30,848 nt of DNA from an uncultured Candidatus Rokubacteria bacterium (GCA_963789955.1 CAWBMV010000033.1:1-30848), one strand, 5' to 3'; positions 2,573 through 30,275 are shown, counted from the stretch's first letter. Notes: generated by a model not told the origin, from the sequence alone. Made by a program: numbers and translations.

Positions 2573-2590
2573 TTGGGACCAAGGTCCGAT
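2573..2590. promoter_or_regulatory. Palindromic operator box, copy 1 (TTGGGACCAAGGTCCGAT)
   Basis: GAC-NWWG-GTC core, 37 bp upstream of the DUF3943 gene; the motif recurs in 7 other intergenic regions. Confidence 0.7.
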
Positions 2591-2627
2591 GGACGCCGCC
2601 GACTGACCCCGGCATGGTGCGCTCGCG

Positions 2628-3377
2628 GTGCACCGCTCCCTCGCCGGCTTCCTCTTACTCGTCTCCCTCTCGCTCGTGGCCATGCCTGCACGGGCCGAGA
2701 ACGATTCCGATTCGAGCGATTGGTGGATGCAAGCGGTTGCCGAGGACGCACCAGAGAAGAAGTTCCATTTACTTCCCGACGATTCGCTGCAGCCTCGAGA
2801 CTGGATCGGGCTCGCGCGCGACACCGCGTTCCTTCTCAGCTACCAGGTCGTCGGCGCCGCCATCCTCTACGTCGTCCCGGAGAGCGTCTCGCAGTGGTCC
2901 AGCAAAAACAAAGATATCAGCTTCGAGAAATGGTGGGAGAACGTGCAAAGCCCCCACTGGGATGACGATGCCTGGGCCGTGAACTACATCGGGCACCCGT
3001 ACTTCGGCGCCACCTACTACACGCGCGCCCGCGAGCGTGGCTTCGACCGCATCGACTCGTTCCTGTACGCGGCCTTTGCCTCAGCGCTCTACGAGTTCGG
3101 GGTCGAGGCGGTCTTCGAGCGGCCCTCCTACCAGGATCTGATCGTCACGCCCATCGGGGGCGCGCTGCTGGGCGGGTTCGTCTTCGAGCCGTTCAGAAAC
3201 TGGATCCGACGCAAGCCCGAGCTCAAGTGGTACGACCACGTCGGCCTGATCGCGACCGACCCGATCGGGGCGCTGAACTACATGGCGGAAAGCCTGCTCG
3301 GGATCAAGTCGGACATCCGGGTCGGGATCCCCCGAAGCGGCGGCGTGCTCGTCGAGTTCCGCATACCCTTGAAGTGA
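2628..3377 (+). CDS. DUF3943 domain-containing exported/membrane protein
   Basis: Signal peptide ending ARA; family-like motifs WDDDAWAVNYIGHPYFGATYYTRAR and YEFGVEAVFERPSYQDLIVTPIGG. Confidence 0.8.
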   Translation: MHRSLAGFLLLVSLSLVAMPARAENDSDSSDWWMQAVAEDAPEKKFHLLPDDSLQPRDWIGLARDTAFLLSYQVVGAAILYVVPESVSQWSSKNKDISFEKWWENVQSPHWDDDAWAVNYIGHPYFGATYYTRARERGFDRIDSFLYAAFASALYEFGVEAVFERPSYQDLIVTPIGGALLGGFVFEPFRNWIRRKPELKWYDHVGLIATDPIGALNYMAESLLGIKSDIRVGIPRSGGVLVEFRIPLK

Positions 3378-3386
3378 CGCCGTAAA

Positions 3387-3421
3387 GACATCGCCTGTCA
3401 CTATAATAGTGACGCGATGTC
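3387..3421. promoter_or_regulatory. Inverted repeat enclosing a perfect TATAAT -10 element and the start codon of the Rieske gene
   Basis: GACATCGC-CT-GTCACTAT-A-ATAGTGAC-GCGATGTC; TATAAT at 3402-3407, ATG at 3417. Confidence 0.65.
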
Positions 3422-4682
3422 GACTCCGTTCCTCACGTCTTCACAGCGCGCCGACGCCCGCGCGCTGCTCGAGCGTCTGATCGCCGAGCACACGCCGGGT
3501 CACGCTCTCCAGCGCGAGTTCCAGACCGATCCCGGCATCTACCAGCTCGACCTCGAGCGTATCTGGCGGCGCGGGTGGCTCTTCGCCGGCCACACCTGTC
3601 AGGTGAAGGCGCCGGGCGACTACTTCGTCTTCGACCTCGACACCGACTCGATCATCGTCATCCGCGGTGACGACGGACACATCGCCGCACTCCACAACAC
3701 CTGCCGTCATCGGGGAATGAAGGTCTGTCAGACCCAGTCCGGGCACGTCGCGCGGATCGTCTGCCCGTATCACCAGTGGTCCTATGCGCGCGACGGCGCG
3801 CTCGTGGCGTGCGGCGGGATGGACAAGGACGGCGACCTCGATCGCAGCGACTACGGACTGCACCGCGTGCACGCCCGTGAAGTCGGCGGATTGATCTTCG
3901 TTTGCCTGGCCGACGATCCGCCCCCGTTCGAGGGCGCCGCGGAAGCGCTCGGCGCGCTCCTGCGCCCGCAAGGGCTCGAGCGCGCGCGGATCGCCGCGAG
4001 CCGGAGCTACGAGGTCCACGCGAACTGGAAGCTCGTCTGGGAAAACAACCGCGAGTGCTGGCACTGCAACGCGAACCACCCGCAGTACGTCAAGGCCAAC
4101 TACGACAACGCGCCGATCGACGACCCGGCGCTCAAGCACGAGATCGAGACGCAGGCCCGGGCGACGTCCGATCGCCTGGAGGCCGACGGGCTTCGGATCG
4201 ACTATCAAGAGGCGGGCATGGTGCGCTTCCCGTCGCCCGACTACTGGTGGTCGATCAATCGCACGCCGCTGGTGCCCGGCTGGGTGAGCGAGTCGATGGA
4301 CGGTCGGCCCGTCGCGCCGCTGATGGGCTCGTACCGGACGCGCGACGTTGGCACCTTGCGCATGCGGACGATGCCCAACTTCTGGAACCACTCGAGCGCC
4401 GATCACGCCGTGTCCACACGGCTCGCGCCGGCCGGGCCGCAAAAGACGCTCGTGCAGGTACAGTGGCTCGTTCACGAGGACGCCGTCGAAGGGAAGGACT
4501 ACATACTGGACGCGCTGCTCCCGTTCTGGGAGCTCACCAGCGAGCAGGACTGGGACCTCTGCGAGAAGAACCAGGCCGGCGTCAACTCCTCGGCATTCAC
4601 GCCCGGCCCCTACTCCACGAAGCGCGAATACAACGTGATTCGCTACACGCAGTGGTACCTCCACCAGATCACCGGACAATAG
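3417..4682 (+). CDS. Rieske non-heme iron oxygenase alpha subunit, GbcA/choline monooxygenase-like (quaternary amine demethylase)
   Basis: Rieske motif CRH...CPYHQW; mononuclear iron motif NWKLVWENNRECWHCNANHP; C-terminal EQDWDLCEKNQAGVNSSAFTPGPYS. Confidence 0.9.
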   Translation: MSTPFLTSSQRADARALLERLIAEHTPGHALQREFQTDPGIYQLDLERIWRRGWLFAGHTCQVKAPGDYFVFDLDTDSIIVIRGDDGHIAALHNTCRHRGMKVCQTQSGHVARIVCPYHQWSYARDGALVACGGMDKDGDLDRSDYGLHRVHAREVGGLIFVCLADDPPPFEGAAEALGALLRPQGLERARIAASRSYEVHANWKLVWENNRECWHCNANHPQYVKANYDNAPIDDPALKHEIETQARATSDRLEADGLRIDYQEAGMVRFPSPDYWWSINRTPLVPGWVSESMDGRPVAPLMGSYRTRDVGTLRMRTMPNFWNHSSADHAVSTRLAPAGPQKTLVQVQWLVHEDAVEGKDYILDALLPFWELTSEQDWDLCEKNQAGVNSSAFTPGPYSTKREYNVIRYTQWYLHQITGQ

Positions 4683-4853
4683 ACAAAGCCTCTTGATTCG
4701 CCCGTCGTAGCCGGTGCGCGGCGCCACACTCGCTCTCGCACGCGACGGCGCGATGCCTGGCGCGACACCCTAAGCTCGCGCCGAACAATCGCGCGTCGAC
4801 CAATCAGCTGCAGCAGGGAATCGTCGCAACCCTCACCCGCCGCGACCGACATC

Positions 4854-5032: not shown

Positions 5033-5683
5033 TCACGGCCCAGTAAAGGGTGGAACGACCGACACCCCGTCCGGCAGCAGAATCTTGATAGAAGCGCGAC
5101 GCCGCGCGTCGTCGAGCCACTTCACCTGAGCTTCCACCGCCGCCTGACGGATCAGCCTGTCGCGCACGCGCTCCCGCGCGTCGTCGTCGTGCTGCCCCGC
5201 GCCGAGCTCGCGCGTCACCGTCTCCTCGTCCGGGAAGATGAACGCGGCGAATCGCGCGTCGAGGAACTTCGACTTCACGATGTCTTCCCCGACCATCACG
5301 CGCGCCCAGTCGCGGTCGATGGCCTTGTCCTCGAGCCAGCGCGTCAGCGCCGCCTCGCCGCCGGCGCGGGCGGCGACCGCGGCCCACGCGGTGTCGACCG
5401 CGGCCGGCTCGGCCTCGACGCCGATCTTGGCGGCTTCGGCGAGGATCAGCAAAACGTCGACGAAGCGATCGACGTCGATGCGTGTGATCGGCGCGCTCGA
5501 CGGCACGAAGCCGAACACGGCCAGCGCGCGCGCCAGCGCGATGTCGCTCGCCGAGATCGTGCGCGCGTCGACCTGCGCGAGCAGCGTGTCCACGGGCTCG
5601 GCGCGAGCGAACGAGACGTGAAGAAGAGCCAGCAGCATCGCCACCGCCACGAAGCGGGTGCGCGGCAGCGGCCGCACGTTCAC
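5033..5683 (-). CDS. SurA N-terminal-domain-like periplasmic chaperone without a PPIase domain
   Basis: GTG start 1 bp after the Omp85 stop; signal peptide ending ARA; VDTLLAQVDARTISASDI and WLDDARRRASIKIL resemble the SurA N- and C-terminal segments. Confidence 0.65.
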   Translation of the reverse strand: MNVRPLPRTRFVAVAMLLALLHVSFARAEPVDTLLAQVDARTISASDIALARALAVFGFVPSSAPITRIDVDRFVDVLLILAEAAKIGVEAEPAAVDTAWAAVAARAGGEAALTRWLEDKAIDRDWARVMVGEDIVKSKFLDARFAAFIFPDEETVTRELGAGQHDDDARERVRDRLIRQAAVEAQVKWLDDARRRASIKILLPDGVSVVPPFTGP

Positions 5684-5684
5684 A

Positions 5685-8459
5685 TCAGAACGCCTGGCCA
5701 ACCGTGAGATAGACCTGAATGCGATCGTCGTTGCGAACCTGGCGGAGCCCGTAGCCGACGTCGAGGCGAATCGGGCCGATCGGCGTGGTGATTCGCAATC
5801 CGCTGCCGACCCCGGGGAAGAATTCCGACCACGCGAAGTCGGACACGGTCTGGGTGACCAGGCCCGTGTCGAAGAAGACAACCCCGCCGAGCCAGCGATA
5901 GATCGGAAAGCGGTATTCGACGTTCGTGATGATCGAGAGATCGCCGCCTCGCGGATTGCCGCCGTCGTCGAGCGGACCGACCTTGTCCAGCTTGTAGCCG
6001 CGAACGGTCGTGCTGCCGCCGGCCTTGAACCGATCCTCGATCACCAGGTCCGCGGTGCCGCCGTACGGGGCCGCGATCCCGAAGCGAGTCGAGAGTGCCA
6101 GCACGGTCCGGGCCGGCAAGGAAACGAGCCAGGAGTCCTCGAGCCGAAACTTCACAAAGCTGACGTCGCCGCCGAGCGCGGAGCTTCCGATCTCGAGTCC
6201 GGCAAAATGATAGCTGCCCGCGTGCGGATCGGCGGGCTGATCGCGAAGCTCGAGCGTGAGGAACCCCTGTACGCTCGTGACCAGGTCGTCCGGCCTCCGT
6301 ATGGCGCCGTCCGCGATGAGGTCGGGGTCGATCTGAAAGCGGTGGAACTGCTCGATCCGGTAGCGGAATCCGCCGCGCAGGCTCTTGGGATGGTCCGTCG
6401 GCTCCTCCGGGATGAAGAGGCGGGGCAGGAGATCGCGCTGCAGGGTGGCCGTCGCGCCGTAACTGTCACGAAGGTAGCCAACCTCCTGCTTCTCTTCGAC
6501 GAACGCGATGGCTTCGCCTTGCCACTGGGAGTCCAGAACCCAGGGCTCGCGATAGGCGAGCTCGCCCCGATATCCCTTCTCGCTGATGCGCGTCATGAGC
6601 GAGGCGCTCCGCCCGGTTCCGAACAGATTGTCATACGCCAGCGTCAAGAACCCGCGAAAGCCTTCTTCCGTGGCGTAGCCCGCGCCGAGCTCGAAGCGCC
6701 ACGGCTTCGCCTCTCGCAGGGACACCCGAACGTCGCGGATGGGCGAGCTCGGATCGCCGAGAGGCTCGACGTCGACGCGGTCGAAGAGGCGGGTCGCATC
6801 CAGGCGGCGCCGCGCCTCCGAGAGCGTGACCGCGGTGAGCGGCTCGCCCGACGAGAACTTGAGCTCGCGCTCCACGACGTAGGGCCTGGTGGTCGTCAGG
6901 CCAGAGACCAGGATCTGGCCGATCTGCGTGAGCTCGCCCTCCCGCACGGCATAGGCGACCGATACCGACCCGTCCTTGTCCGCCGAGTTCAGGCCCACGA
7001 CGGTGCCGCGATATCCCCGGCGCTGATAGAGCTGCTCCAGCTTGTGGCGCGCGTCCTCGGCACGCGTGGCGTCCCACGGATCGCCGGCCTTGAATCCGAT
7101 GGTCTTCATGACGGTCTGGGTTTCGAGGGCACGGTTGCCCGTGAGGGTGACCGAGGCGACCATTCGTCTCGGCCCCTCGACCACTGGAACGACGATCCGC
7201 GCCTTGGTCCGGTCGTCGCTGAAGGTCACCCGCGGCGGCCCGATCTGCGCCGACGCAAATCCCTCGGTGCGGTAGTAGTGCTGGACGAGTCGCACGTCCT
7301 GTTCAAGCTGCTCCTGATTGAACAGTCCGCGAAAGATGCCGATCGGCACCAGGCCGGCGGGGCGCGTCTGCATCTGTTCGGCGACCTGCTTGTCGGTTAG
7401 GGTGGCCAGCCCTTCGAAGGTGAGGCTTTCGACGACGACACGCGGGCCCTCCTCGATGTGGAACTTCACCGCGCGTCCGCTGGCGTCGCCGAGCAGCGTC
7501 CCCGTCACCTCGACGAAGTGATAGCCTGCCTCGTGGTAGGCCTTCTCGATCTGATCGGCGCCGGCCCTGACCTCGACGTCGTCGACGATCCGGTCGTCGC
7601 CGAAGACCAGGCGCTCGCGGAGCTGCGCCTCGGTGAGTGCCTCCCGACCGATGAACTCCACCACCGTCAGCGGGCCCTCGATCACCTCCAGGGTGAGATC
7701 GACCTTGTTCGTCGCGGCATCGAAGGCGGGCTCGCGCGACGACACGCGCGATTCGAAGAAACCCTGCGTGTGAAGCGCTTCCTCGAGCGCGCGCAGGCCG
7801 TCGCGAAACTTGCGCTCTTTGAACTTGTCGCCCGGGCCGAGGTCGAGCGCCTTGCGGAGCGGCTTTTCCTCGGCGCGCGCGAGCCCGGTGATCTCCAGCC
7901 GACCGACGCGAGCCTCCTTGGCGGCATCGACGACCATCGTCACCGCCCGGCTGTTGGTCACCGGGTTCTCGCGAACATCAAGGCTCACCGTCGCGGCCAG
8001 ATAGCCCTCTCGACGCAGGCGCGCAAGGACTTCGTTCCGCGCGCGCTCGAGACGTGCAGGCTCGGCCGGGCCTCCAAGCGCCAGCGCCGCCGCACCGGCG
8101 AGGTCGGGCGCGTCGACCCCAAGGTTACCGACCCACGTCAGGCTCTCGAGAAACGGTCGCCGCGAGACACGGAAGCGAAGCCGGACGCCGCCGGGCTCCT
8201 CGACCGACTCGACCTCGACGCCGTCGAAGATTCCGAGCGCCCATAGCCGGTCGAGGCTCTCTCGGACTCGCGCGCGGGAGAACGGATGGCCCGGAAGATC
8301 CGTCAGGAACTGATCGACCGGAGGCCCGTTGAGCTGATGCCGCGAGACCACCTCGACGGCCGTCACCATGGGAGGCGGCGGCCCGGGGCTCGACCTGGCG
8401 AGCGAGGGCACGAGCGCGATGACGGTGACCACGAGGGCCGCCGCGAGGCGGCGGATCAT
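5685..8459 (-). CDS. bamA: Omp85-family outer membrane assembly protein (BamA/TamA-like) with about 7 POTRA repeats
   Basis: Signal peptide; repeated POTRA ends (VIEGP, IEEGP, VVEGP, VREGE); barrel motifs GGSTTVRGY and TPIGPIRLDVGY; terminal Phe; ATGA overlap with tamB. Confidence 0.88.
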   Translation of the reverse strand: MIRRLAAALVVTVIALVPSLARSSPGPPPPMVTAVEVVSRHQLNGPPVDQFLTDLPGHPFSRARVRESLDRLWALGIFDGVEVESVEEPGGVRLRFRVSRRPFLESLTWVGNLGVDAPDLAGAAALALGGPAEPARLERARNEVLARLRREGYLAATVSLDVRENPVTNSRAVTMVVDAAKEARVGRLEITGLARAEEKPLRKALDLGPGDKFKERKFRDGLRALEEALHTQGFFESRVSSREPAFDAATNKVDLTLEVIEGPLTVVEFIGREALTEAQLRERLVFGDDRIVDDVEVRAGADQIEKAYHEAGYHFVEVTGTLLGDASGRAVKFHIEEGPRVVVESLTFEGLATLTDKQVAEQMQTRPAGLVPIGIFRGLFNQEQLEQDVRLVQHYYRTEGFASAQIGPPRVTFSDDRTKARIVVPVVEGPRRMVASVTLTGNRALETQTVMKTIGFKAGDPWDATRAEDARHKLEQLYQRRGYRGTVVGLNSADKDGSVSVAYAVREGELTQIGQILVSGLTTTRPYVVERELKFSSGEPLTAVTLSEARRRLDATRLFDRVDVEPLGDPSSPIRDVRVSLREAKPWRFELGAGYATEEGFRGFLTLAYDNLFGTGRSASLMTRISEKGYRGELAYREPWVLDSQWQGEAIAFVEEKQEVGYLRDSYGATATLQRDLLPRLFIPEEPTDHPKSLRGGFRYRIEQFHRFQIDPDLIADGAIRRPDDLVTSVQGFLTLELRDQPADPHAGSYHFAGLEIGSSALGGDVSFVKFRLEDSWLVSLPARTVLALSTRFGIAAPYGGTADLVIEDRFKAGGSTTVRGYKLDKVGPLDDGGNPRGGDLSIITNVEYRFPIYRWLGGVVFFDTGLVTQTVSDFAWSEFFPGVGSGLRITTPIGPIRLDVGYGLRQVRNDDRIQVYLTVGQAF

Positions 8460-11400
8460 CGAAATCTGAAGCGCAAGATCACGTCGCCGCCGACGCCGCC
8501 GCTGAAGGCCTGCTCGCCCGCGATGAGGACGGGCCCGAACAGCTGGTATTCGACGCGGAGCTTCTGCTTACCGCCCTCGGAGAAGCTTCCGGAGTACGTC
8601 ACCAGCGTGCGGTCGTTGAGGCGCTTGCCCACACGAAATTCGCTCTGACCTTCCTCGTTCTTTCCGAACTCGAGGACGTCGACGGTCGGGGCGTGGAACT
8701 CGCCACCGAGCAGCTCCTTCGAGATGAGCTGTGCCGCCTCGGTCGCGAACACCGTGCCTCCGCCCGTGCCGCCGAGCTCGGACCTGGTCGAGCCGACGGT
8801 GACCAGCGCCAGCAGATCGTCTTGCGCGAGTGGCGGCTCGGACTGCAGGCGAATCGTGAGATCGTCGGCGCGACCCGTCAGCCACATCGTGACGTCATAG
8901 GTGCGGATTCGCGTGGTCGCGCGCAGGTCGAGGTACGGATTGATCCGTCCGGGGTCGTCGAAGCGCATGACCGCGTTCTCGAGGACGTATCGGTTCCGTC
9001 GGAAGGTGACGCGGCCGTCCTGGGTCTCGAGCGTCCCCAGGACCGCCGGCGCCGCGATCGTGCCGCGCAGCGCGAGCGCGCCGCCGCCGCGGACCTGCGC
9101 CTGCGGCGACCGAATGACCAGGTTGTCGTCGAGGTTGACCTGCACCTGCAGTGCGAATTCACGCCCCCACGCGGCGGGCTCCGCGCGCCCGCCGCTCTTG
9201 AGCAGGAGCGGCAGAATCGAGAGGTCGCGCGTGTAGGTGCCGCGAACGAGGTGCGCCTCACCTCGCACGAGCCCCCGGGCACCGCGGCCCACCAGCGCCA
9301 GCTCGGAATTCCAGACGGTCTCGAGGCCTTCGACCGGGGTCAGCCCCACCCGTTTCGCGCTCAGCTCCACCTGATAGGCGCCGACGGTGCCGCCGTCGAT
9401 CGCGATCTCGCCGGTCACGCTCACGGAGCCCGTCCCGACGCCGGCCTTCAGCTCCTCGATTCGAAGCCGTGAAGGCGACAGTGCCACGCGACCCTCCATG
9501 TCGCGAACCACGAACGGCAGATCTTTGATCGCGATGAGTCCGCCGCTGATGGTGGCGCGCCCCAGCACCGTCGGCTTCGCGAGGGTGCCGCCGAAGCGCA
9601 CGTCGAGATCGAGCTTGCCCGACGCGTCGCGCACTTCCTTGCGCAGGACCGCCAGCAGCGCGAGCGGCACCTGGCCGCGCAATGTGCCGTCGAGCGTGCC
9701 GCCGTCGTCGAGCGAGCCCACGACCGTGGCGGTGCCGAGACGCCCGGCGATCTCGAGCCGCTCGACGGTGAGCTTGCCGGCCTCGCGGCGGACGATGATC
9801 GGCCCCTGCGCCTCCCAGCTCTCGCCCGCCATCTGGAAGCGGACCGGCTCGAGCCGAACCACGCCGCGCGCCGCGCGGGGATCGCGCGCGGGCACGTCGA
9901 GCGTGGCGACGGCCGAGAAGCGGCCGTTCGCATCGCCGAACAGATCCGGGCGCAGCTGGCGCAGGATCGGGCCGATCTCGAAGTCGGTCGCGATGAGGCG
10001 CGTGGCGATCACGCCGTCCACCCGGCCCTGGGCACTCGCCGCGATCCGCGCGTCGGGCAGTACCGCGTCGGCTTTGAGCGCGTTGTCGTTCAGGGCGACG
10101 TCGGCGGTCGCCGGGCCGAGCGCCCACCCGGCCACCGCCAGACGCTCGCCGGCCAGCTTGCCCGAGCCGTTGACGCGACCGTCGCGCACTGTCGCATTGA
10201 CGTTGGCGCGCGCCCGCCCTTCGACGCGGAGCCGCGCCGGCACACCCGGCAGGCGCGCGAGATCGACCAGACCGGTGCTCGCGTCCACCTCGCCCTCGCC
10301 GGCCCATCGCCAGTGGCCGCGCGCCGTCAGCGGCGCGTCGAGCACCATCGCCTTCAGCGCCGGGATCTCGATGCGATCCGGAGTGGCCTCGAACGCCACG
10401 TGCAGGTCGCGCGCCTCCGGAATATCGGGCCAGGTCAAGCTGCTCGACTCGACCTGCCCGGTTGCGCGCCACGCGGTGAGCGTGCCCTTCACCGCCACGG
10501 TCGCTCGAACCGGGCCGCTGCCACGGGCCGCGGGCGGAAGCCACGGCCACGCGTCCTCCAGGCGCAGCTCCTCCGTCTGCGTCTGGAGATCCACGCGAAC
10601 CGCGTCGAGAGGCGGCACGGCGGGCGCCGCGCTCTGCGGCCACGTGGCGTTGCCCGAGGCGACGACGCGGGCGCGGCCGAGACGCACGGCGGCGTTCGCG
10701 AGCTTGAGCGAGCGCTGCGTGAGCTCGAACGGCAGCACGATCTCGTCCGCTCGCAGATCGGCGCGCGCGGGCGAGTGCAGCTCGAGCCGGCCGGTCGCCA
10801 TCGGATCGCGCCAGCGTCCCGTGACGTCCGCGGTCAGCACGCCGTTGCCCGACACCGCGCGCTGCCCCAGGAGCGGCCCGAGCTTCGCGAGGTCCCCGGT
10901 CGCCGTAAGATGCAGGCCCTTCGGCCCGTCCATCGTCGCCTGGCCGAGCGCGTCGACGCGAAGCCCCGCCCAGCTCGCGACGCCATGAGCGAGGGTGAAT
11001 GTCCCGTGCTGGCCGTGCACCTCGGCCTCGACGGCGCCGGGCCCGAGCGACGCCAGACGATCGGGAAGCCGGAGCGCGTGCGCCTTGAGACGGATATCGC
11101 TCTGCGCGTGCACGGGATCGCCGAGATCACCGTGGACGTCGACGTCGGCGTCGAGCCGTCCGGTGACGCCGGATCTGGCTCTGGCGAGCGGCTCGAGCGC
11201 CGCGACCGAGATCCCGCGCCCGCCGAGCACCGCGTGCGCGCGCTCCAGGTGCGCGAGCTCGACGGTCAGCGAGCCGACCACGGCGCCGTCGAACGCGCGC
11301 GCGTCGAGCTTCGTCACCGAGAGCACGCCGTCGGCGAGGGCCACCTGCGCCTTCCCGTTCCGTGCTTTCACGGGCCCCGTCGTGAGCTCGTCGAACGCGA

Positions 11401-12298: not shown

Positions 12299-12307
12299 GG
12301 CGGGCCT

Positions 12308-12316: not shown

Positions 12317-12397
12317 GCGCGGCCGACCGCCAGACCGCGAGGCGGCCGGCCGCTATGCGCGGGCGTGTCGCCCGCGATGCGCCGAGCGTGCGCGCGG

Positions 12398-21360: not shown

Positions 21361-21435
21361 GCCGATCGGCCCGCCCGTATGGGACCAACAACGCATTGGC
21401 GCGATGGGGGCGCTCGGCGATAGTAGCCACCGAAC

Positions 21436-21864
21436 GTGGCTCAAGTGGATTGTCCGGATACTCGAGAGCAACACGCGGGCCGACTGAGCCCGACCGCATC
21501 GCCGTCACCCCTGGTGTACGTGATTGACGACGACGCTTCGCTCCTGCGTGCCCTTCGCCGTTTGCTCGCCGCAGGCGGCTTTCGTGTGTGCACGTTCTCG
21601 TCGGCCGAGGATTTCCTGGAGTCTGCGAAGGCGGCGCCCGCGTGTCTCGTGCTCGACGTGCACCTCGGCGGGCTCAGCGGGCTCGACCTCCAGGAGCAGC
21701 TGCTCGCCTCGGGGCGACGAATCCCGGTGGTCTTCATTACCGCCCACGACGACGCGGTCACGCGCGAGCGTGCGCGCCGCGCCGGCGCCATCGACTACCT
21801 CCGCAAGCCCTTCAACGACGAGTCGTTGCTCGCAGGCATCCGGCGCGCGCTCGACAGCCACTGA
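21436..21864 (+). CDS. Single-domain response regulator (FixJ-type receiver)
   Basis: VYVIDDD, CLVLDVHL, FITAHDD, YLRKPF; no output domain; start codon uncertain. Confidence 0.88.
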   Translation: MAQVDCPDTREQHAGRLSPTASPSPLVYVIDDDASLLRALRRLLAAGGFRVCTFSSAEDFLESAKAAPACLVLDVHLGGLSGLDLQEQLLASGRRIPVVFITAHDDAVTRERARRAGAIDYLRKPFNDESLLAGIRRALDSH

Positions 21865-21972: not shown

Positions 21973-22557
21973 TTACTTTTCTTTGACCAGGAACATGCCC
22001 CGACGGTTCTGCGACCAGCACCCTTCGTTCTCTTCCTTGCACAACGGCCGTTCCTCGCCGAACGAAACGAGCGTGATCCGATCGCCCTGGACGCCTTGCG
22101 CGACGAGGTAGTTCATCGCGGTCTTCGCGCGCCGATCGCCCAGCGCGAGGTTGTACTGCTCGGTGCCGCGCTGGTCGCAGTGACCCTCGATCAATAGGAT
22201 CTGGTTCGGATTCCCTGCGAGCCATTTGGCGCTCGCGTCGAGGATTTTCGCGTCAGCCGGGCGAATCGTCGCCGAGTCGAACGCGAAGTGGATCGGCTTC
22301 AGACTGTCGTTCGCCATGTACTCCTTCGGCGGCGCGGGACGCGGCGCGGGCGGCGGCGGCGCAGCGACGACCGGCGGCGGTGGTGCCGGCGCGACAGGGG
22401 CCGGCGCGGGGGCCGGCGGCGGCGGCGCGGGGGCCGGCGCAGGCGCAGGCGCCGCCACTGGATTCGGGGCAGCCACTGGGCGCTTCGCGCAGGCCGACAC
22501 GAAAAGGAGCCCGACGATCAGTGAAGCGAGAATTGAACGATCAATGAACGTGCGCAC
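21973..22557 (-). CDS. pal: Peptidoglycan-associated lipoprotein (OmpA C-like domain) with a Pro/Ala-rich linker
   Basis: Lipobox VSAC; IHFAFDS; EGHCDQRGTEQYNLALGDRRA; SFGEERP; NRR. Confidence 0.92.
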   Translation of the reverse strand: MRTFIDRSILASLIVGLLFVSACAKRPVAAPNPVAAPAPAPAPAPPPPAPAPAPVAPAPPPPVVAAPPPPAPRPAPPKEYMANDSLKPIHFAFDSATIRPADAKILDASAKWLAGNPNQILLIEGHCDQRGTEQYNLALGDRRAKTAMNYLVAQGVQGDRITLVSFGEERPLCKEENEGCWSQNRRGMFLVKEK

Positions 22558-22630: not shown

Positions 22631-22648
22631 ATGGGACGTTGGTCGGAT
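22631..22648. promoter_or_regulatory. Palindromic operator box, copy 4 (ATGGGACGTTGGTCGGAT)
   Basis: Lies between divergent pal and the lipoprotein-kinase operon. Confidence 0.65.
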
Positions 22649-22785: not shown

Positions 22786-23211
22786 ATGCGTTCTGACAAA
22801 TTAGGCATCTGCGCGCTGGGGCTGGCGGTCGTACTCGGGCTCGCCGGCTGCGTGAGTAGCGGGTCGGCGACAACGGGTGGGCCGATCGCGATCACCGATG
22901 TGGCGAGCATCGCGGGCAAGTGGGTCGGACTTCTCGAGATGTCGGGCTCGCAAGACCGGGAGGACTATGTCGAGGTGACGATCGCCGGCGACGGCACCTA
23001 CCGGGCTGCCTCGGCGCGCACGATCGGGGTCATGGACGTCAAGGGAACCGTCTCCGTGTCCGACGGCAAGCTCCTGATCCGGGGCGAGCGCGGCGGCCGC
23101 GGGACCGGTACACTCTTTACCCAGACCGGGCAGCCGCCGCGTCTTCTGCAAGTGAACGGTACCGCGGGCGACGGGCGTCCGTACATCGTGCGGCTCCGGC
23201 CACAATCTTGA
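22786..23211 (+). CDS. Small hypothetical lipoprotein (beta-rich)
   Basis: GGGAGG RBS; lipobox LAGC; SIAGKWVG motif; ends 7 bp before the kinase gene. Confidence 0.8.
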   Translation: MRSDKLGICALGLAVVLGLAGCVSSGSATTGGPIAITDVASIAGKWVGLLEMSGSQDREDYVEVTIAGDGTYRAASARTIGVMDVKGTVSVSDGKLLIRGERGGRGTGTLFTQTGQPPRLLQVNGTAGDGRPYIVRLRPQS

Positions 23212-23218: not shown

Positions 23219-25603
23219 ATGAGCAGAATCTCGACGGACCGCGCGTCGATGTTGCTGGCGGCGGCGCTCGTGTGCGTCGGGTACTTCTTCGGGGCCCGGA
23301 TCGGCTTCGCCTTCACGATCCACCCGTCTCCCGTGTCGACGCTCTGGCCCCCCAACTCGATCTTGCTGGCGGCGTTGCTGCTGGCCCCGACGCGGGCGTG
23401 GGGCCTGCTGCTCCTGGCGGCGTTCCCCGCGCATCTCGTCATCCAGCTCGCGAACGACATCCCCGTGACGATGATCCTCCTCTACTTCATCAGCAATTGC
23501 TCCCAAGCGCTGATCGGCGCCACCTGCATCCGCCGCCTTGCCGGGGGGACCCTGCGATTCGACGATTCCCGCCACGTCGGGGTGTTCGTCTTCGGCTCGA
23601 TCGTCGGCGTGTTCGTGTCGTGTTTTCTCGACGCCGGCATCGTGGAGCTCGTCGGGGGCTGGGGCCAGGGTCCCTTCTGGCAGCTCTGGCGATCGCGCTT
23701 CTTCTCGAATGTGCTGGCGGAGCTGACCGTGGTTCCCGCGATCATCGCGTGGTCGCAGGTCGACGTGCGAAATCTTCGGAAAGTGTCGGTGCGCACGCTG
23801 GCCGAGGTCATCGGCCTGAGCGTCAGCCTCCTTGGCGTCTGCATCGCGGTCTTCGTGTGGCGAGACTCGGGAGTGGGCGGGATTCACGCGCTGCTCTACG
23901 CGCCGCTCCCCTTCCTGGTCTGGGCCACCGTGCGCCTGGGCACGATCGGGACCAGCACCGCGACGCTCGTCGTCGCGTTGCTGGAGACCCGCGGCGCGAT
24001 CAATCAGGTCGGCCCCTTCGTCGCGAGCTCGCCGAGCGACAGCGCGCTGTCGATCCAGCTGTGTCTCATCCTCGCCTCGATTCCGCTTCTGCTGCTCAGC
24101 GCAGTCATCCAGGAGCGCAGTCGGGCCGAACGCGCGGCGGTCTTCAGCGCGGAGAGCCTGAAGCTGGCGCTCAACGCCGCGCACATGACGATCTGGGACT
24201 GGAGCCTGCCGCCGGGCGACGCGAACTGGCGGCGCGACTCGAGCCCCGCGCCGTTCGGCGCCATGCTGCGCGTGGTGCATCCCGACGATCAGCTCGTGGT
24301 CGCCGAGGCCATCACCGCCGCGATCGAGAAGGCCGCGCCCTGGGACGTCGAGTTCCGCGTCGTGCACTCCGACGGCAATGTCCGCTGGGTGATGGGCAAA
24401 GGCGAGGTCCTGCGCGACGAGCGCGCGCATCCGGTGCGTCTCCTGGGCGTCAACGTCGACATCACCGACCGCAAGCGGGCCGACGAGGCCGTGCGCGCGT
24501 CCGAGGAGCTCTTCGCGCGCGCCTTCCGCTCCAGCCCGGACGCGATGCTCATCAGCCGCCGGACGGGCGGCCAGATCATCGACGTCAACGATCGCTGGGA
24601 GACGCTCTTCGGCTACACCCGGGCGGCCGTGATCGGGCGTACGATGGCCGAGCTACCCCTCGCGGCCGGCCTGCATGACCAGGCGACCTTGCGACGCCTG
24701 GTCGAGGCGCCGGGCCCCGTGCGTGACGTCGAGGCCCAGTTTCTCACTCTGAAGGGGGAGCTGCGCGAGGCGATCATCGCGACCGAGACCGTCGAGATGA
24801 GCGGTCACGCGTGCTTCATCACGACGATCCGGGACATCACCGAGCGCCAGCGCGCCCAGCGTGAGGCGCAGGAGCAGCGCCAGCTCCTGACGCATCTGGG
24901 CCGCGTCGCGGTCCTCGGCGAGCTCTCCGGTGCGCTGGCCCACGAGCTGAGCCAGCCGCTGACCGCGATTCTGAGCAACGCCCAGGCCGCCCGCCGCATG
25001 CTCGCTCGGGAGCCCGTCGACCTGCATGAGATCGACGAGATCCTCGAAGACATCGCGAGCGCGGACCGGCGCGCCGGCGAGGTCATCCGGCGCCTGCGCG
25101 CGATGTTCAAGCGCGGGGAGTCGAACCGGCAGCTGCTCGATCTCAACGAGATCACGCGCGACGTGCTCGATTTCGCCCGGAGCGACATCCTCACCCGCCA
25201 CGTGCAGGTGACGACGAAGCTCGCTCCTGATCTACCGCAGGTGCGGGGTGACAGCGTCCAGGTCCAGCAGGTGCTGTTGAACCTGATCGTCAACGGATGC
25301 GAGGCGATGATCGGCAACGAGCCGAACGATCGCGCGCTCGTGATCGAGACGAGCGTCGTCGATCACGAGACGGTCGGGATCTCGGTGCTCGACAACGGCA
25401 GCGGCATCCGGCCCGACATCCTCGATCAGCTCTTCGAGCCGTTCGTCACCACCAAGCATCAAGGCCTGGGGCTCGGGCTCACCATCTGTCGGTCGATCGC
25501 CACCGCGCACGGGGGTCAGCTGTGGGCCGGCAACAACCAGGATCGCGGATCGGCGTTTCGGCTGCTCCTGCCGAGGAACGACAGCCTCACCCTGGTGAGC
25601 TGA
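23219..25603 (+). CDS. MASE1-PAS-PAS sensor histidine kinase (FixL/NodV-like transmitter)
   Basis: MASE1 motifs LWPPNSILLAALL and PFLVWATVRLG; PAS HPDD...EFRV; H-box GELSGALAHELSQPL; DNGSG; GLGLGL. Confidence 0.92.
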   Translation: MSRISTDRASMLLAAALVCVGYFFGARIGFAFTIHPSPVSTLWPPNSILLAALLLAPTRAWGLLLLAAFPAHLVIQLANDIPVTMILLYFISNCSQALIGATCIRRLAGGTLRFDDSRHVGVFVFGSIVGVFVSCFLDAGIVELVGGWGQGPFWQLWRSRFFSNVLAELTVVPAIIAWSQVDVRNLRKVSVRTLAEVIGLSVSLLGVCIAVFVWRDSGVGGIHALLYAPLPFLVWATVRLGTIGTSTATLVVALLETRGAINQVGPFVASSPSDSALSIQLCLILASIPLLLLSAVIQERSRAERAAVFSAESLKLALNAAHMTIWDWSLPPGDANWRRDSSPAPFGAMLRVVHPDDQLVVAEAITAAIEKAAPWDVEFRVVHSDGNVRWVMGKGEVLRDERAHPVRLLGVNVDITDRKRADEAVRASEELFARAFRSSPDAMLISRRTGGQIIDVNDRWETLFGYTRAAVIGRTMAELPLAAGLHDQATLRRLVEAPGPVRDVEAQFLTLKGELREAIIATETVEMSGHACFITTIRDITERQRAQREAQEQRQLLTHLGRVAVLGELSGALAHELSQPLTAILSNAQAARRMLAREPVDLHEIDEILEDIASADRRAGEVIRRLRAMFKRGESNRQLLDLNEITRDVLDFARSDILTRHVQVTTKLAPDLPQVRGDSVQVQQVLLNLIVNGCEAMIGNEPNDRALVIETSVVDHETVGISVLDNGSGIRPDILDQLFEPFVTTKHQGLGLGLTICRSIATAHGGQLWAGNNQDRGSAFRLLLPRNDSLTLVS

Positions 25604-25633: not shown

Positions 25634-26330
25634 TCAGTCGGTGGGACGGAGCCCCAGCCGATCGGCCTGGCGGACGAGCTCGGCGACCGATCCGACTTGC
25701 GTCTTCTCCATCACGCGGCCGCGGTGGAATTTCACCGTCTTCTCGCTGATGCCGAGATCACTCGCGATCTGCTTGTTGAGCCGGCCCTGAATGACGAGCC
25801 GGAGCACGTCGCGCTCGCGGGGCGTCAACGTGTCGAACCGCACGCGGATGCTGGCGATCTTCCGCCCGATCTCGCCGTGCCTCGCGATCGCGCCGCAGCG
25901 CGCCGTGGATGATGTCGAGCAGGGCCTGGTCGCTGAACGGCTTCTGGAGGAAATCGACCGCGCCGGCCTTGATCGCGCGCACGCTCGAGGGCACGTCGGC
26001 GTGACCGCTGATGAAGACGATCGGGACGTCATGCCCGGACCGGATGAGGCTTTCCTGGAGCTCGAGGCCGCTCGGACCCGGTAGCCGCAGATCGAGCACG
26101 ACACACGCCGGCCGATCCGGCATCGGCTTGCGCAGAAAGTCTTGAGCCGAGGCGAAGGTCTCGACGTCGAGGTCGACCGACCGGAGCAGGCGCTCGAGCG
26201 AGCGCCGCACCGAGTCGTCGTCGTCGATCACGAAGACGATCGGCCGTTCGAGTGGCTCGCCTTGCGGCCCCGCGGGGGCCGCCGGCGCTTCGCGACTCGA
26301 CGGTGGATTCGGGGTAATCGACATCGACAT
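25634..26330 (-). pseudogene. FixJ/NodW/TodT-type response regulator (REC + LuxR HTH), +1 frameshift at about 25860 (pseudogene or sequencing error)
   Basis: REC domain (VFVIDDD, LDLRLP, FISGH, FLQKPF) in ORF 25758-26429; HTH (LTPRERDV...[25 protein letters not shown]) in ORF 25634-26104; changing GAAG to GAG rejoins them as [15 protein letters not shown]. Confidence 0.88.
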
Positions 26331-26428: not shown

Positions 26429-26446
26429 ATCCGACCTTGGTCCAGC
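26429..26446. promoter_or_regulatory. Palindromic operator box, copy 5 (ATCCGACCTTGGTCCAGC)
   Basis: Lies between the two divergent response regulator genes; extended -10-like TGCTACTAT at 26468-26476. Confidence 0.7.
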
Positions 26447-26491
26447 GCGTGAACCAGGGTACACGTTTGCTACTATCGAATGCAGGGTCTC

Positions 26492-26914
26492 ATGATCAGC
26501 GACTTGAGCCGCGCCCGACCGCTCGTCGCCATCGTCGACGATGAGGAATCGATCCGAAAGTCCCTTCGGCGGCTGTTGATGGCAGCCGACCTCGACGCCG
26601 TGGTCTACGCCTCCGGGCAGGAGTTCCTCGACACGCTGAGAGGGCGCCACCCGGACTGCCTGATCCTCGACCTCCAGATGCCCGGCCTGACCGGGCTCGA
26701 GGTTCAGCGGGCGCTCACGGCGGCCGGGGTGCAGTTCCCGACGATCATCATCACCGCCCACGACGAGCCGGAGGCCCGGGCCAGGTGCCTGGGCGCCGGG
26801 GTCGCCGCGTATCTCTGCAAGCCACTCCACGACGAGCTGTTGCTCGATGCGATCGCGAATGTGATGGGCCGTGTCGGCGCGCCTGCCGGCACCGAAGATC
26901 ACCCGCGGGCCTGA
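26492..26914 (+). CDS. Single-domain response regulator (FixJ-type receiver)
   Basis: VAIVDDE, CLILDLQMP, IITAHDE, YLCKPL; start is ATG 26492 or ATG 26480. Confidence 0.88.
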   Translation: MISDLSRARPLVAIVDDEESIRKSLRRLLMAADLDAVVYASGQEFLDTLRGRHPDCLILDLQMPGLTGLEVQRALTAAGVQFPTIIITAHDEPEARARCLGAGVAAYLCKPLHDELLLDAIANVMGRVGAPAGTEDHPRA

Positions 26915-26954: not shown

Positions 26955-26972
26955 ACTGGACCTAGGTCTCAT
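26955..26972. promoter_or_regulatory. Palindromic operator box, copy 6 (ACTGGACCTAGGTCTCAT)
   Basis: 47 bp upstream of ATG 27020. Confidence 0.7.
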
Positions 26973-27019: not shown

Positions 27020-27646
27020 ATGAGCCTGAAGGTGACGACATTCACTGCAATCGCCGGAATTCTGATGTGCGCCCAGTCGCCCGCGGTCGACGCTGACGCG
27101 CTAAGACTCGCTCAGACGTCGGGGACCGAGAAGGCACCGGCCGCGACCAACAAACCGCTTGGGCGCTCCGAGGGCCGGGCCGTGACCGTCAAGGGGACCA
27201 TTTCCGCCATCGACAAGGAAAAGAGCACCGTCACGCTCAAAGGGCCCAAAGGCCGTACCGTCACCCTCGAGGTGAAGGATCCCCAGAAGTTCGACGTGAT
27301 CAAGGTCGGCGATCCCGTCGTGGCCACCTACATGGAAGCGGTCGCGTTCCAGATCAAGAAGCCGGGCACCGCGACGCCGGGCACCACGGTTCAGGAGAGC
27401 CGCGTGAGCTCGAAGCCCGGCGAGACGCCGGCCGGCGCGGTCGGCCAGGAAGTCACGGTCACCGCCACGATCACCGCCATCGACAAGAAGGCTCACACCG
27501 TCACGATCAAGGGCCCCAACGGCAACACGGAGACCGTCAAGGCGAAGGACCCGAAGAACCTCGATCTCGTCAAGGTCGGAGATCTGGTCGAGATCAGTTA
27601 TATGCAGGCGCTGGCCGTGTCGCTCGACATACCCGCGAAGAAATAG
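27020..27646 (+). CDS. Exported protein with two tandem OB-fold-like repeats; paralog of 13255-13839
   Basis: AGGAGG RBS; signal-like N-terminus; two copies of AIDK...TVT(L/I)KGP.G...KDP...D..KVGD. Confidence 0.82.
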   Translation: MSLKVTTFTAIAGILMCAQSPAVDADALRLAQTSGTEKAPAATNKPLGRSEGRAVTVKGTISAIDKEKSTVTLKGPKGRTVTLEVKDPQKFDVIKVGDPVVATYMEAVAFQIKKPGTATPGTTVQESRVSSKPGETPAGAVGQEVTVTATITAIDKKAHTVTIKGPNGNTETVKAKDPKNLDLVKVGDLVEISYMQALAVSLDIPAKK

Positions 27647-27674: not shown

Positions 27675-29384
27675 TCAAACCTTGAGCGGGAACTCGGGCA
27701 AGGGCAGCTTGCCCTCGGTGCGCAAGCGCTGCACTTCGGCGGCCGCGGCCCCGGCCCGCTCGGTGTCGATGCCGGCGGTGGCGCTGTAGTTGGTCTGCGC
27801 CGGCAGGGCGAACGCCGTCCCGGCCGTTGCGACGACATCCATCACCCGGAGGCAGAGGTCCTCGCGAACCGCCAGGAAGTCGTTGTAATCCCGGGTGCGG
27901 ACGTAGACGAAGAGCTCGACGTCGAGCGAGCTCGCGCCGAAGCCGCTGAATCGCACGCGCGAGGTGTCGGGGTCGACGCGAGGATGCGCGTCGAGCAAGG
28001 CCCGTATGCGGACGAGGACCCAGCGAAGCTGGTCCGGTGACGTCTCGTAACGCAATCGCAGGGTCGTGTTGAACAGGATGCGATCCCGCTCCTGGAGGTT
28101 CTCCACCTGCAGGTCGAGGAACTTGGCGTTGGGGATCGTGATCACCGAGCGTTCGGGCGTACGCACGCGCGTGGACCAGAGGCCGATCCGCTCGACGGTC
28201 CCCTGCTGGTCGCCGAAGCGGCAGAAGTCACCCACCTGAACGGGCTGGTCGCCGACCACCGCGAGCCCTCCGAAGAGATTCTCCACGGTGCGCTGGGCTG
28301 CCAGCGCGATCCCGATGCCGCCGACGCCGATCGCCGCGATCAGCGCGCTGACCTGGACGCCTACCGCTTCGAGGAGCATCAGGGCCGCCATGACCGTCAC
28401 CACGATCTTGAGCCCGCGCTGAATGAAGTCGATCACCGGCTGGCTCGGGGGCTCCTGGCGACGGAGCAGTCGCCGCCGGACGAGCTGGCTCGATACCTCG
28501 ATGAGACGCAGGGCGAGCCAGCTCACGATGATGACGAGCACGAACTTCTGGATCCCGACGACGATCGGTCGGACGGCCACCGGCAGCGCGAGGCTGGATT
28601 CGCCGATCTTGAACGCGATGAGCCCGACCAGCCCGCGCAGCGGCGAGAGCGCTCGGCCAAAGGCGGGATCGGTAACGTCGAAGCCCGCCCGGATCGCCAG
28701 CCGGCGCGTCAGCGGCAACCCCGGGCGGACGACGATACACGCGATGAGCCAGGACACGCCGAGCAGGATCAGGAGCCCGATCCACTGCCACAGCGCGAGC
28801 CGGAGTACTCGCGTCTCGACGAGGAACGGCGGCAGACGCTCGCCGACGATCCCGTAGGTCAGGTTCTTGTAGAGATCGGGGATCCGCGAGACGGTGACGT
28901 TCGAGAACTGCCAGATCGGGACGCCGTCGTCGCGGGGCACCCGCTCCATGAGGAGCGAGAACGCTCCTTTGTCCGTCTCGACCCGCCCGATGAGCTCGCG
29001 GTTCGATGCCAAGCCGGTCTCCGGGCGACCCTCCGGCTCGTCTGAGATCGCCCCGAGATCGAACAGCGTGTTGTCGAGCACGACCCGAAGCTGATGCGCC
29101 AGCTCGGGTCCTCGTGCCGCGACTTCGGCGGCGGGGATGCGCCGCAAGTCGAGATAGCTCGCGGCGCGACGGTAGTTGTGGAGGGCTGCGGCGTCGAGAA
29201 AGCCGCGCAGCGCGCTTTGAGGCGTGCCGCGTCCGAGCTCGTCGACTGGCGGCGGCGCTGTCACGGCGGGCGCGGACTTGGCGCCAGTCGTATGGTCAGC
29301 CGGCGCCGCCGGCGATGCGACGACGAGCGTCCCCACGATGACCGCGAAGCCAAGGACCCGACAGCACACGGCCTTTCCCATCAC
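27675..29384 (-). CDS. MscS-family mechanosensitive channel with an N-terminal periplasmic domain
   Basis: GVGGIGIALAAQRTVENLFGG, DQPVQVGDFC, GTVERIGLWSTRVRT, IPN; N-terminal LGRGTPQSALRGFL domain. Confidence 0.92.
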   Translation of the reverse strand: MMGKAVCCRVLGFAVIVGTLVVASPAAPADHTTGAKSAPAVTAPPPVDELGRGTPQSALRGFLDAAALHNYRRAASYLDLRRIPAAEVAARGPELAHQLRVVLDNTLFDLGAISDEPEGRPETGLASNRELIGRVETDKGAFSLLMERVPRDDGVPIWQFSNVTVSRIPDLYKNLTYGIVGERLPPFLVETRVLRLALWQWIGLLILLGVSWLIACIVVRPGLPLTRRLAIRAGFDVTDPAFGRALSPLRGLVGLIAFKIGESSLALPVAVRPIVVGIQKFVLVIIVSWLALRLIEVSSQLVRRRLLRRQEPPSQPVIDFIQRGLKIVVTVMAALMLLEAVGVQVSALIAAIGVGGIGIALAAQRTVENLFGGLAVVGDQPVQVGDFCRFGDQQGTVERIGLWSTRVRTPERSVITIPNAKFLDLQVENLQERDRILFNTTLRLRYETSPDQLRWVLVRIRALLDAHPRVDPDTSRVRFSGFGASSLDVELFVYVRTRDYNDFLAVREDLCLRVMDVVATAGTAFALPAQTNYSATAGIDTERAGAAAAEVQRLRTEGKLPLPEFPLKV

Positions 29385-29434
29385 ATGGCTCCCTTTCGAT
29401 CACGACAGCCTACGCAACTCTCGCTCAGTCCATG

Positions 29435-29452
29435 CCTGGACAAAGGTCTCAT
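29435..29452. promoter_or_regulatory. Palindromic operator box, copy 7 (CCTGGACAAAGGTCTCAT)
   Basis: About 50 bp upstream of the MscS gene; nearly identical to copy 6, including the following GG. Confidence 0.7.
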
Positions 29453-29491
29453 GGTCGACCGGTGGGACCTGGCGTGAGGTCGTGCAGGCGT

Positions 29492-30184
29492 TCAGAGGTC
29501 GAAGATGGACCGTGACCCGGTCCCGCCCTCGAGCAAATCGCGCTGGATCATGCGCCGCCACAACTTTTCGGCGGCCTCGTCGATCGGGACGAGCCGGTCG
29601 TGTCTCACCACCTCGCTCGCGAGGGCGAGTTCCCCGGCCGACTCCCAGAGAATGTGGCCCGTCCGCGTGTCCCACAGCTGCAGCCACACGCGCAGAATCG
29701 ACACGCGAGTCCTGATCACCTTGACGCCGGCGATCTCGAACCTGTCCAGGACGACCTGATCGAGCTGCGCCAGCCCCGGAAGCAGCAGATAGCGGAAGCC
29801 GAGCGCCGACCCGATTCGCTGCAGCCGCTCACGATCCACGATGCCGGTGCGGGCGAAGCCCTCCAGCAGCTCGGCGTAGGCCGTCGCGAGGCCCTGATCG
29901 TTGAGCGCGTTCGCGATCTCGCGGGCCGGAATCGCGCGGATGGGCGGAGACGCGTTGGCGAGCGCGGCGACGAGCGCGTGAGACAGCGCCATGCTCAATC
30001 CCTGGAGCGCGGCGGGCGCGACGAGACCAGGGGTTGCCACCGGCTCGCGCGAGAGCTCGCTAACGTCGAACGACGGAGGCCTCGCCGTGGACGTGGTGTT
30101 GATGTCCCACATGTAAAGCGGCGTGCAGCCGATAATGAATACGGCTACGACCACGACGAGCGGCCCGCTCACGCGTTTTGCCAC
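29492..30184 (-). CDS. Hypothetical lipoprotein (possibly CsgG/LpoB-like fold)
   Basis: Lipobox-like FIIGC; LQRIGSALGFRYLL and LQLWDTRTGHILWES resemble CsgG/LpoB/GNA1162-type domains. Confidence 0.7.
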   Translation of the reverse strand: MAKRVSGPLVVVVAVFIIGCTPLYMWDINTTSTARPPSFDVSELSREPVATPGLVAPAALQGLSMALSHALVAALANASPPIRAIPAREIANALNDQGLATAYAELLEGFARTGIVDRERLQRIGSALGFRYLLLPGLAQLDQVVLDRFEIAGVKVIRTRVSILRVWLQLWDTRTGHILWESAGELALASEVVRHDRLVPIDEAAEKLWRRMIQRDLLEGGTGSRSIFDL

Positions 30185-30257
30185 GGTGCTTCAGCCTACT
30201 CCGATCATGAAGTCGTCATCACCCGCAAACTATCGAAGATGCGCCGCTCGCGACTCG

Positions 30258-30275
30258 CTTGGACTAAGGTCCAGT
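30258..30275. promoter_or_regulatory. Palindromic operator box, copy 8 (CTTGGACTAAGGTCCAGT)
   Basis: Lies between the divergent lipoprotein and PRC-barrel genes; matches copy 2 at 16 of 18 positions. Confidence 0.7.

Follow-up and report, generated by a model that had tools for sequence, protein, structure and literature searches.

A dispersed palindrome as predicted operator of a StyR/FixJ-type response regulator with envelope-rich targets in an uncultured Rokubacteria bacterium

The stretch of DNA analysed here (GCA_963789955.1 CAWBMV010000033.1; 30,848 nucleotides, called the window below) comes from an uncultured Candidatus Rokubacteria bacterium and constitutes one entire contig, C33, of a 6.77 Mb genome (G000; 38 contigs, 68% G+C). 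Dispersed between its genes is a palindromic box, ATKGGACCWWGGTCCMAT when the sites are read on both strands. This box is probably the operator of a response regulator encoded in the same gene cluster, which combines a phospho-receiver domain (REC) with a GerE-type helix-turn-helix (HTH) domain and is predicted to bind as a phosphorylated dimer near position -43 and to activate transcription from there. Rokubacteria (Methylomirabilota) are abundant soil bacteria that are not known to have cultured members, and no account of their gene regulation is known to us. A concrete assignment of regulator, operator and regulon is proposed for this phylum, with about 30 transcription units in which envelope proteins are enriched.

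The first-pass annotation of the window had listed eight intergenic 18-mers with a common core, and all their coordinates and letters were verified. They score 17.3-24.0 bits with a symmetrised 18-mer matrix, and 8/8 fall in the 2055 of 30848 bases (6.7%) that are intergenic on a gene map drawn with a retrained codon-bias caller and checked against Pfam. The two degenerate copies reported at 14957 and 21379 are intergenic as well (scores in Table 1), and no site stands ahead of the Rieske gene on this map. The spacing of about 35-140 bp given for the distance to start codons was also found, the site centres lying 34-146 nucleotides (nt) from the called starts; the shortest distances, at 17494, are probably due to starts called too far upstream. 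The looser core GACNWWGGTC yields 13 strand-matches at 10 distinct places of the window, against a mean of 0.85 in dinucleotide-preserving shuffles, none of which (0/100) reaches 13. The earlier estimate of fewer than one chance match per window agrees with these shuffles; the rate of the genome itself is higher, 295 places in 6.77 Mb amounting to 1.34 per 30.8 kb. Relative to the genome, the window is about 7.5-fold enriched for this core and forms its densest cluster. Two further core matches lie inside genes, at 1979 (DAO/GCV_T) and 7932 (Omp85), and are read as chance because neither is among the places of at least 7 bits on the 18-mer matrix.

A near-duplication accounts in part for the clustering of the eight sites, since the window aligns end to end, in inverted orientation, with C1:291547-324142 at 83-95% nucleotide identity and with the same gene content and order. 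This situation points either to a recent large segmental duplication or to a second strain in the bin, whose contamination is estimated at 5.14%. The broken genes differ from copy to copy (the regulator in the window; Omp85, DUF481, DUF3943 and DAO/GCV_T in C1), a pattern that fits indel errors of the assembly. The site cluster at C1:289-326 kb was rejected as independent evidence of conservation on account of this identity, which extends throughout.

The palindrome is nevertheless found well beyond these two copies. A scan of the genome with the matrix, built from the eight window sites, gave 49 matches of at least 16 bits, 40 of them in intergenic DNA, which represents 19.4% of the genome. 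When the window, its C1 twin and the other near-duplicate contexts are omitted, 24/32 non-redundant sites of at least 16 bits are intergenic against the 19.4% expected (binomial P=1.6e-11), and 15/18 of those reaching 18 bits. The site centre is separated from the called start codon by a median of 84.5 nt (interquartile range 49-109) and is often midway between divergent genes. Approximately 30 gene groups or transcription units are preceded by the box, many of them for envelope proteins. In addition to the targets of the window, the genes behind the sites encode three further MscS-type channels, an HtrA-like protease, an OprD-like porin, DUF3300, CopD, MMPL and sulfotransferase proteins, a NapC/NirT cytochrome, a sulfatase, a carbonic anhydrase, OmpR-type regulators and many small lipoproteins. 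On a crude heuristic, a hydrophobic N-terminus is present in 25/44 first genes (29.6% genome-wide) and a lipobox in 6/44 (1.9% genome-wide). The cell-envelope targets proposed from the window alone are thus borne out as an enrichment of exported proteins and lipoproteins, and the label of envelope regulon is reasonable because both features are over-represented among the first genes.

Conservation was followed among the nearest relatives, which are metagenome-assembled genomes labelled Candidatus Rokuibacteriota, Rokubacteria or Methylomirabilota. Four congeneric species (G011, G013, G002 and G008) contain proteins of the cluster, mostly 53-93% identical, and sites stand at the homologous promoters in these species. 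The recurring promoters are those of Pal, the DUF481 string, the cytochrome and small lipoprotein pair, the stand-alone receiver REC1, the pair formed by the regulator and a second stand-alone receiver (REC2), MscS, and the lipoprotein and PRC-barrel pair. An alignment of the Pal upstream regions (six sequences from five genomes) has a mean column identity of 64%; its longest invariant block is TATCCGACCAACGTC[C/T]CATTGAG, and site 22631 is the core of this block. In G004, G014, G013, G011 and G001, sites of 16.2-19.8 bits also stand in the flank ahead of the regulator gene itself. The dispersed operator-like motif of the earlier annotation is therefore upheld both by its enrichment between genes genome-wide and by its conservation upstream of orthologues in other species.

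The genome contains 10 GerE domains in total, and the exact recognition helix of the cluster regulator occurs only in the window gene and in its C1 copy, which is intact and 231 amino acids (aa) long. Among PDB entries, the full-length protein matches StyR best (1yio, E=4e-58 over 195 residues), then FixJ (5xso, 1.3e-39), and DevR at 6.2e-15 (3c3w). Because of these E-values, the regulator is placed in the StyR/FixJ subfamily and is not DosR-like. The FixJ-like gene of the window, suggested earlier as the LuxR-type HTH regulator of the motif, remains the best candidate, and it is the kinship with DosR that has to be given up. Both Response_reg and GerE domains are recognised by Pfam, and the segment VVLDLRLPG, whose aspartate corresponds to the phospho-acceptor of the family, aligns with LVLDMRMPG of StyR.

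The C-terminal domain taken alone leads to another protein, the LOV-HTH factor EL222 of Erythrobacter litoralis (PDB 8a5r, E=2e-12; 3p7n, E=4e-12). The recognition helix, of the type SEKTVK.HRG.VMEK, is nearly identical to that of EL222, SEKTVKMHRGLVMEK, and the core of the box, GGACCWWGGTCC, fits the published EL222 consensus, RGNCYWWRGNCY (PMC10521638), at 12/12 positions. In a set of 43 sites, 33 have G or A at the outer R and 32 have C or T at the Y. Judged on these similarities, the closest characterised DNA specificity is the RGNCYWWRGNCY of EL222, which binds as a dimer (PMC9614035). The two proteins differ in their input, a LOV light sensor in EL222 and a phospho-receiver here; in contrast to EL222, the natural sites described here come close to perfect palindromes, their AT-rich outer positions are conserved, and they mark a genome-wide regulon in an uncultured phylum.

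StyR, TodT and TmoT, members of the FixJ subfamily that control aromatic catabolism (StyR, PDB 1yio), are reported to read the box ATAAAC-N4-GTTTAT by means of K175, V176 and H179 (PMC5874301). StyR and the present regulator have in common the REC-linker-GerE build and the AC-N4-GT geometry of their boxes, a core spacing that the symmetric half-sites described here also share with the DosR and EL222 boxes. The half-site is however GGAC here instead of AAAC, and the three DNA-reading positions are occupied by K, F and G, so that only the lysine is kept, whereas V172 of StyR is replaced by a further lysine. The targets are envelope genes and not a catabolic operon, and the kinases of the cluster are not of the double TodS/StyS type. 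The DosR/DevR box of Mycobacterium tuberculosis, TTSGGGACTWWAGTCCCSAA, had been given correctly in the earlier annotation (PMC2275270), and a box of similar nature, AGGGCCGATCGGCCCT, is known for OsdR of Streptomyces (PMC5069765). Both are palindromes of GerE-type HTH dimers, as is putatively the box described here; it shares the core GGAC-N-WW-N-GTCC with the DosR box, from which it differs by its inner pair (C/G here, T/A in DosR) and by its outer letters. The kinases of the cluster contain MASE1, GAF, PAS and HisKA (PF00512) domains, whereas DosS and DosT carry HisKA_3. A typical DosR regulon comprises universal stress proteins, nitroreductases and alpha-crystallin, and no gene for any of these was present among the targets scanned.

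The lysine at StyR position 172 was investigated further in 101 distinct homologue loci, obtained from the relatives and by scanning a single genome of each species, which extended the set to Acidobacteriota, Verrucomicrobiota and Proteobacteria. For recognising loci by their helix, tblastn alignment was preferred to a narrow regular expression, which missed many. A locus was scored as positive when GGAC-N-WW-N-GTCC, with no more than one mismatch, lay in the 350 nt before or the 300 nt after the gene; this half-site test was used since a perfect-palindrome test (at least 6/7 pairs) missed most boxes. The GGAC-type box was found beside the gene in 17/28 loci with K at this position against 3/73 without it (Fisher P=2e-9, a value that overstates the support, as the 101 loci are kin). 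WAWAC or CTAC boxes occur conversely in 1/28 K-type loci against 39/73 of the others. Among the K-type loci less than 70% identical to the query, 8/16 pass the strict test and several others have looser GGMCC boxes. A family-wide code can be tentatively put forward, in which the first residue of the helix in HTH domains of the StyR/FixJ/EL222 type would set the half-site in Rokubacteria, Acidobacteriota, Verrucomicrobiota and Proteobacteria, lysine giving GGAC and isoleucine or valine mostly TATAC or TAAAC; the wiring of regulator, box and receiver would be ancestral, and Rokubacteria might have expanded it to an envelope-remodelling switch of about 30 operons including a TamA/TamB-like machine, MscS channels and lipoproteins. 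If this proposal is true, the regulons of uncultured phyla could be predicted from sequence alone.

The receiver is a recurrent element of these loci. The box directly precedes a receiver gene in Rokubacteria and in distant homologue loci, and in six loci of the Rokubacteria order, checked with Pfam, it directly follows the regulator gene and is itself followed by a single-domain receiver gene, like REC2. The FixL-FixJ/FixT system of Caulobacter crescentus offers the same combination of a FixJ-type regulator with a stand-alone receiver as output, FixT being a single-domain receiver that acts as feedback inhibitor of FixLJ signalling (PMC7078487). The receiver gene of the present cluster would differ from fixT in being a direct target, as predicted from its box, and the sensors are MASE1 and GAF/PAS kinases, with no haem-PAS FixL identified. 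Caulobacter fixT lies downstream of FixK. We purely infer that REC2 may inhibit a kinase. As an observation apart, a palindromic box of the AC-N4-GT type lies a few bases after the stop codon of the regulator in many homologue loci. Many StyR/FixJ-type genes of the set L060-L139, drawn from several phyla, have a palindromic box 0-10 nt past the stop. An example is CCTATACCAAGGTATAGG in Pyrinomonadaceae, while Bradyrhizobium and other Alphaproteobacteria have AAACCTAAGTAT; the half-site varies with the recognition helix.

The position of the sites relative to possible promoters was examined in 40 oriented site-gene pairs from 30 sites, duplicates removed. A TAnnnn hexamer starts exactly 22 nt past the 18-mer in 10/40 pairs, for a mean of 0.8 per offset (P=5e-9), and a mirror peak appears on the other side of the palindrome. 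If this hexamer is a -10 element, the site centre would be near -43.5 and the site would fill the place of the -35 element, a position that suggests activation. StyR-P activates PstyA from a high-affinity site at about -40, and an EL222 operator upstream of -35 leads to activation (PMC2442086; PMC9614035). A class-II-type activation is favoured because of the hexamer geometry combined with the activating positions of StyR-P and EL222.

The following mechanism can be proposed on this basis. The regulator would receive its phosphate from the cluster kinases (MASE1-PAS and GAF-PAS). Within the dimer, one RGNCY half-site would be recognised by each HTH, the GG being contacted by the lysine that opens the recognition helix. 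The phosphorylated dimer would then stand in for the -35 element and recruit RNA polymerase, its outputs being some 30 transcription units rich in lipoproteins, outer-membrane proteins, MscS channels, the Pal-like protein and the HtrA-like protease. The regulator gene may be subject to positive autoregulation through site 26429, and the induced stand-alone receiver may feed back to damp signalling, as FixT does for FixLJ. Envelope or osmotic stress as the inducing signal is a guess from the list of targets. Soil RNA libraries (X18, and X15/X16, which are probably a single data set deposited twice) contain contigs that match parts of the kinase, regulator, REC2 and lipoprotein genes with few mismatches; being contigs, they carry no information on starts, strands or levels and do not bear on the predicted promoters or on co-regulation.

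Several points weigh against the proposed assignment, both here and in the alternatives that follow. The gene calls come from a codon-bias caller whose Pfam check covers the window only. The orthologue loci of G002, G008 and G009 have just a degenerate box upstream of the regulator, and the strict box test is failed by 11/28 K-type loci. The TAnnnn hexamer is present at offsets 21-23 in 14/40 pairs, only about a quarter to a third of them, and both the -10 element and the position near -43 are predictions.

A first alternative is that the operator is real and that the cluster regulator is merely one of its targets, the main reader being an unrelated factor or a paralogous REC+GerE regulator encoded at C34:1205535-1206117. 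This paralogue has a lysine at the 172 position of its helix (LKTIKAHRARVMEK), three boxes of the GGACC type (AGTGGACCTTGGTCCAAC, CGTGGACCAAGGTCCACT and ACGTGGCCAAGGTCCAAT) lie 1-3 kb away from it, and some of the genome sites may be its targets; the cluster regulator is moreover frameshifted in the window, where it is split by one extra A near 25859. The C1 copy of this gene is however intact, and a related contig in run X17 is without the extra base. The boxes near the paralogue have AGTGG/CCACT as outer letters, unlike most sites of the regulon, and the box still adjoins regulators of the cluster type when the genome and the arrangement of the genes are different. This alternative is consequently regarded as unlikely. 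Considered in its own right, the region C34:1204796-1208900 contains a paralogous pair of kinase and REC+GerE regulator, with GerE in a separate frame from REC, and the three boxes already mentioned; it could represent a sister regulon whose specificity overlaps with that of the cluster.

The second alternative accepts the cluster regulator and reverses its sign: it would be a repressor covering the -35 element, the genes being on when it is unphosphorylated. The site is predicted to extend from about -52 to -35, into the position of this element, from which a bound protein could equally repress, and EL222 does repress when its operator is between -35 and -10 (PMC9614035). No TTGACA-like hexamer was however seen by eye right after the sites, where it would be expected (no count was run), and the closest characterised relatives, StyR-P and EL222, activate from such a position as described above. 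Repression is therefore held to be improbable, to about the same degree as reading by the paralogue, and activation by the cluster regulator is preferred. Even less credible is the idea that the palindrome acts as a hairpin in RNA or DNA (as a leader structure, a terminator or a repeat element) instead of binding a protein. A 7-bp stem with a 4-nt loop in the 5' region is possible in principle, but the variable symmetric positions show no covariation (observed/expected 19/19.6, 26/26.5, 18/13.2, 18/18.0 and 17/19.8), the invariant letters are sequence-specific (GAC/GTC), sites in mid-spacer serve divergent gene pairs, no Rfam family matches anywhere in the window and the flanks are not conserved as those of a repeat element would be. 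The two halves vary independently, and the box behaves as the operator of a dimeric protein, because of this lack of covariation, its sequence-specific invariant letters and the genes served on both sides.

The circuit itself is conventional and of a well-known kind. What is new is that it is assigned in a phylum without cultures, that its box agrees with the specificity of EL222, that helix position 172 is associated with the half-site, and that the wiring of regulator, box and receiver is conserved. No described regulon with this box was found in the full-text literature of one library, searched for Rokubacteria regulation, for the exact 12-mers and for the EL222 consensus. Natural two-component regulators are in this way linked to a DNA specificity measured for the optogenetic tool EL222. 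A single helix position tracks the choice of half-site across phyla which, if confirmed, would help to predict the targets of the many metagenomic regulators of the FixJ/StyR type. The sites and genes of the window are collected in Table 1.

Table 1. Predicted operator sites, regulatory genes and predicted target genes of the window (positions counted from its first letter)
Feature	Position	Strand or setting	Remarks
Operator site TTGGGACCAAGGTCCGAT	2573..2590	upstream of DUF3943 gene	21.0 bits, intergenic; C1 homologue site 18.2 bits
Degenerate copy TTCGGACCAATGACCTAA	14957..14974	39 nt from site 14996	7.2 bits, weak, intergenic
Operator site CCTGGACGAAGGTCCAGT	14996..15013	upstream of minus-strand DUF481-lipoprotein-SBP-TamB-Omp85 string	20.2 bits; homologous place in G011 18.4, in G013 20.1
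Operator site CTGCGACGAAGGTCTCAG	17494..17511	between divergent multihaem cytochrome and small lipoprotein genes	17.3 bits; homologues in G011, G013, G008
Degenerate copy ATGGGACCAACAACGCAT	21379..21396	upstream of REC1	11.2 bits; identical letters (reverse complement) beside G008 REC1 homologue
Operator site ATGGGACGTTGGTCGGAT	22631..22648	between Pal/OmpA (-) and lipoprotein-MASE1 kinase genes (+)	20.6 bits
Operator site ATCCGACCTTGGTCCAGC	26429..26446	between regulator gene (-) and REC2 (+)	18.2 bits
Operator site ACTGGACCTAGGTCTCAT	26955..26972	upstream of CusF-like lipoprotein gene	24.0 bits, top score of the genome
Operator site CCTGGACAAAGGTCTCAT	29435..29452	upstream of MscS gene	19.8 bits; TAGGCT begins 22 nt beyond, on the gene side
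Operator site CTTGGACTAAGGTCCAGT	30258..30275	between 230-aa lipoprotein (-) and PRC-barrel (+) genes	21.6 bits; G011 homologue 23.7 bits
REC+GerE response regulator, StyR/FixJ/EL222-like	25634..26330	-	Pfam Response_reg and GerE in two frames
Single-domain receiver REC2, most widely conserved target of the box	26480..26914	+	Pfam Response_reg
MASE1-PAS-HisKA-HATPase sensor kinase, candidate partner	23219..25603	+	Pfam; adjoins regulator here and in relatives
GAF-PAS-HisKA-HATPase sensor kinase, second candidate partner	18097..21360	+	Pfam
Single-domain receiver REC1	21436..21864	+	Pfam
DUF3943 protein, target gene	2628..3377	+	Pfam; site centre 46 nt upstream
Target gene string DUF481, lipoprotein, SBP_bac_3, TamB, Omp85/TamA-like, unknown	5033..14931	-	Pfam; one strand, short gaps
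Multihaem cytochrome and TPR protein, target genes	15030..17469	-	Pfam
Small lipoprotein, target gene	17539..17934	+	signal peptide with lipobox cysteine
OmpA-family (Pal-like) protein, target gene	21973..22557	-	Pfam; footprint alignment
Small lipoprotein, target gene ahead of MASE1 kinase	22786..23211	+	gene caller, lipobox listing
CusF-like exported protein, listed as lipoprotein, target gene	27020..27646	+	Pfam and lipoprotein listing
MscS-family mechanosensitive channel, target gene	27675..29384	-	Pfam
230-aa lipoprotein, target gene	29492..30184	-	matches no Pfam family
PRC-barrel protein, target gene	30379..30771	+	Pfam

Some of these genes deserve a separate comment. The string at 5033..14931, which we infer to be a single operon, includes at 5685-12298 the genes of a TamB-like protein (1280 aa) and of an Omp85/TamA-like protein (924 aa, with POTRA repeats), behind those of DUF481, the lipoprotein and SBP_bac_3, a genetic context that is uncommon for a machine of the TAM type. 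In the window, separate frames of 579 and 221 aa encode the multihaem cytochrome and the TPR protein, and the C1 copy (L001:16840-19215) has a single frame of 792 aa, so that the natural protein may be a fusion. Elsewhere in the genome, a 22.4-bit site is found in mid-spacer at each of the near-duplicate loci C2:17106-18955 and C36:144875-146040, where the gene of an OmpR-type regulator is divergent from that of a small lipoprotein (C36) or of a 351-aa protein with a methyltransferase domain (C2). Finally, a stretch of about 170 nt (4854-5024), flanked by the Rieske gene and by the gene at 5033-5683, folds into a long, near-perfect hairpin (-146.6 kcal/mol, z=-14.5); this repeat has at least 12 copies on other contigs, with 73-82% identity, and resembles a dispersed repeat of the miniature inverted-repeat transposable element (MITE) type.

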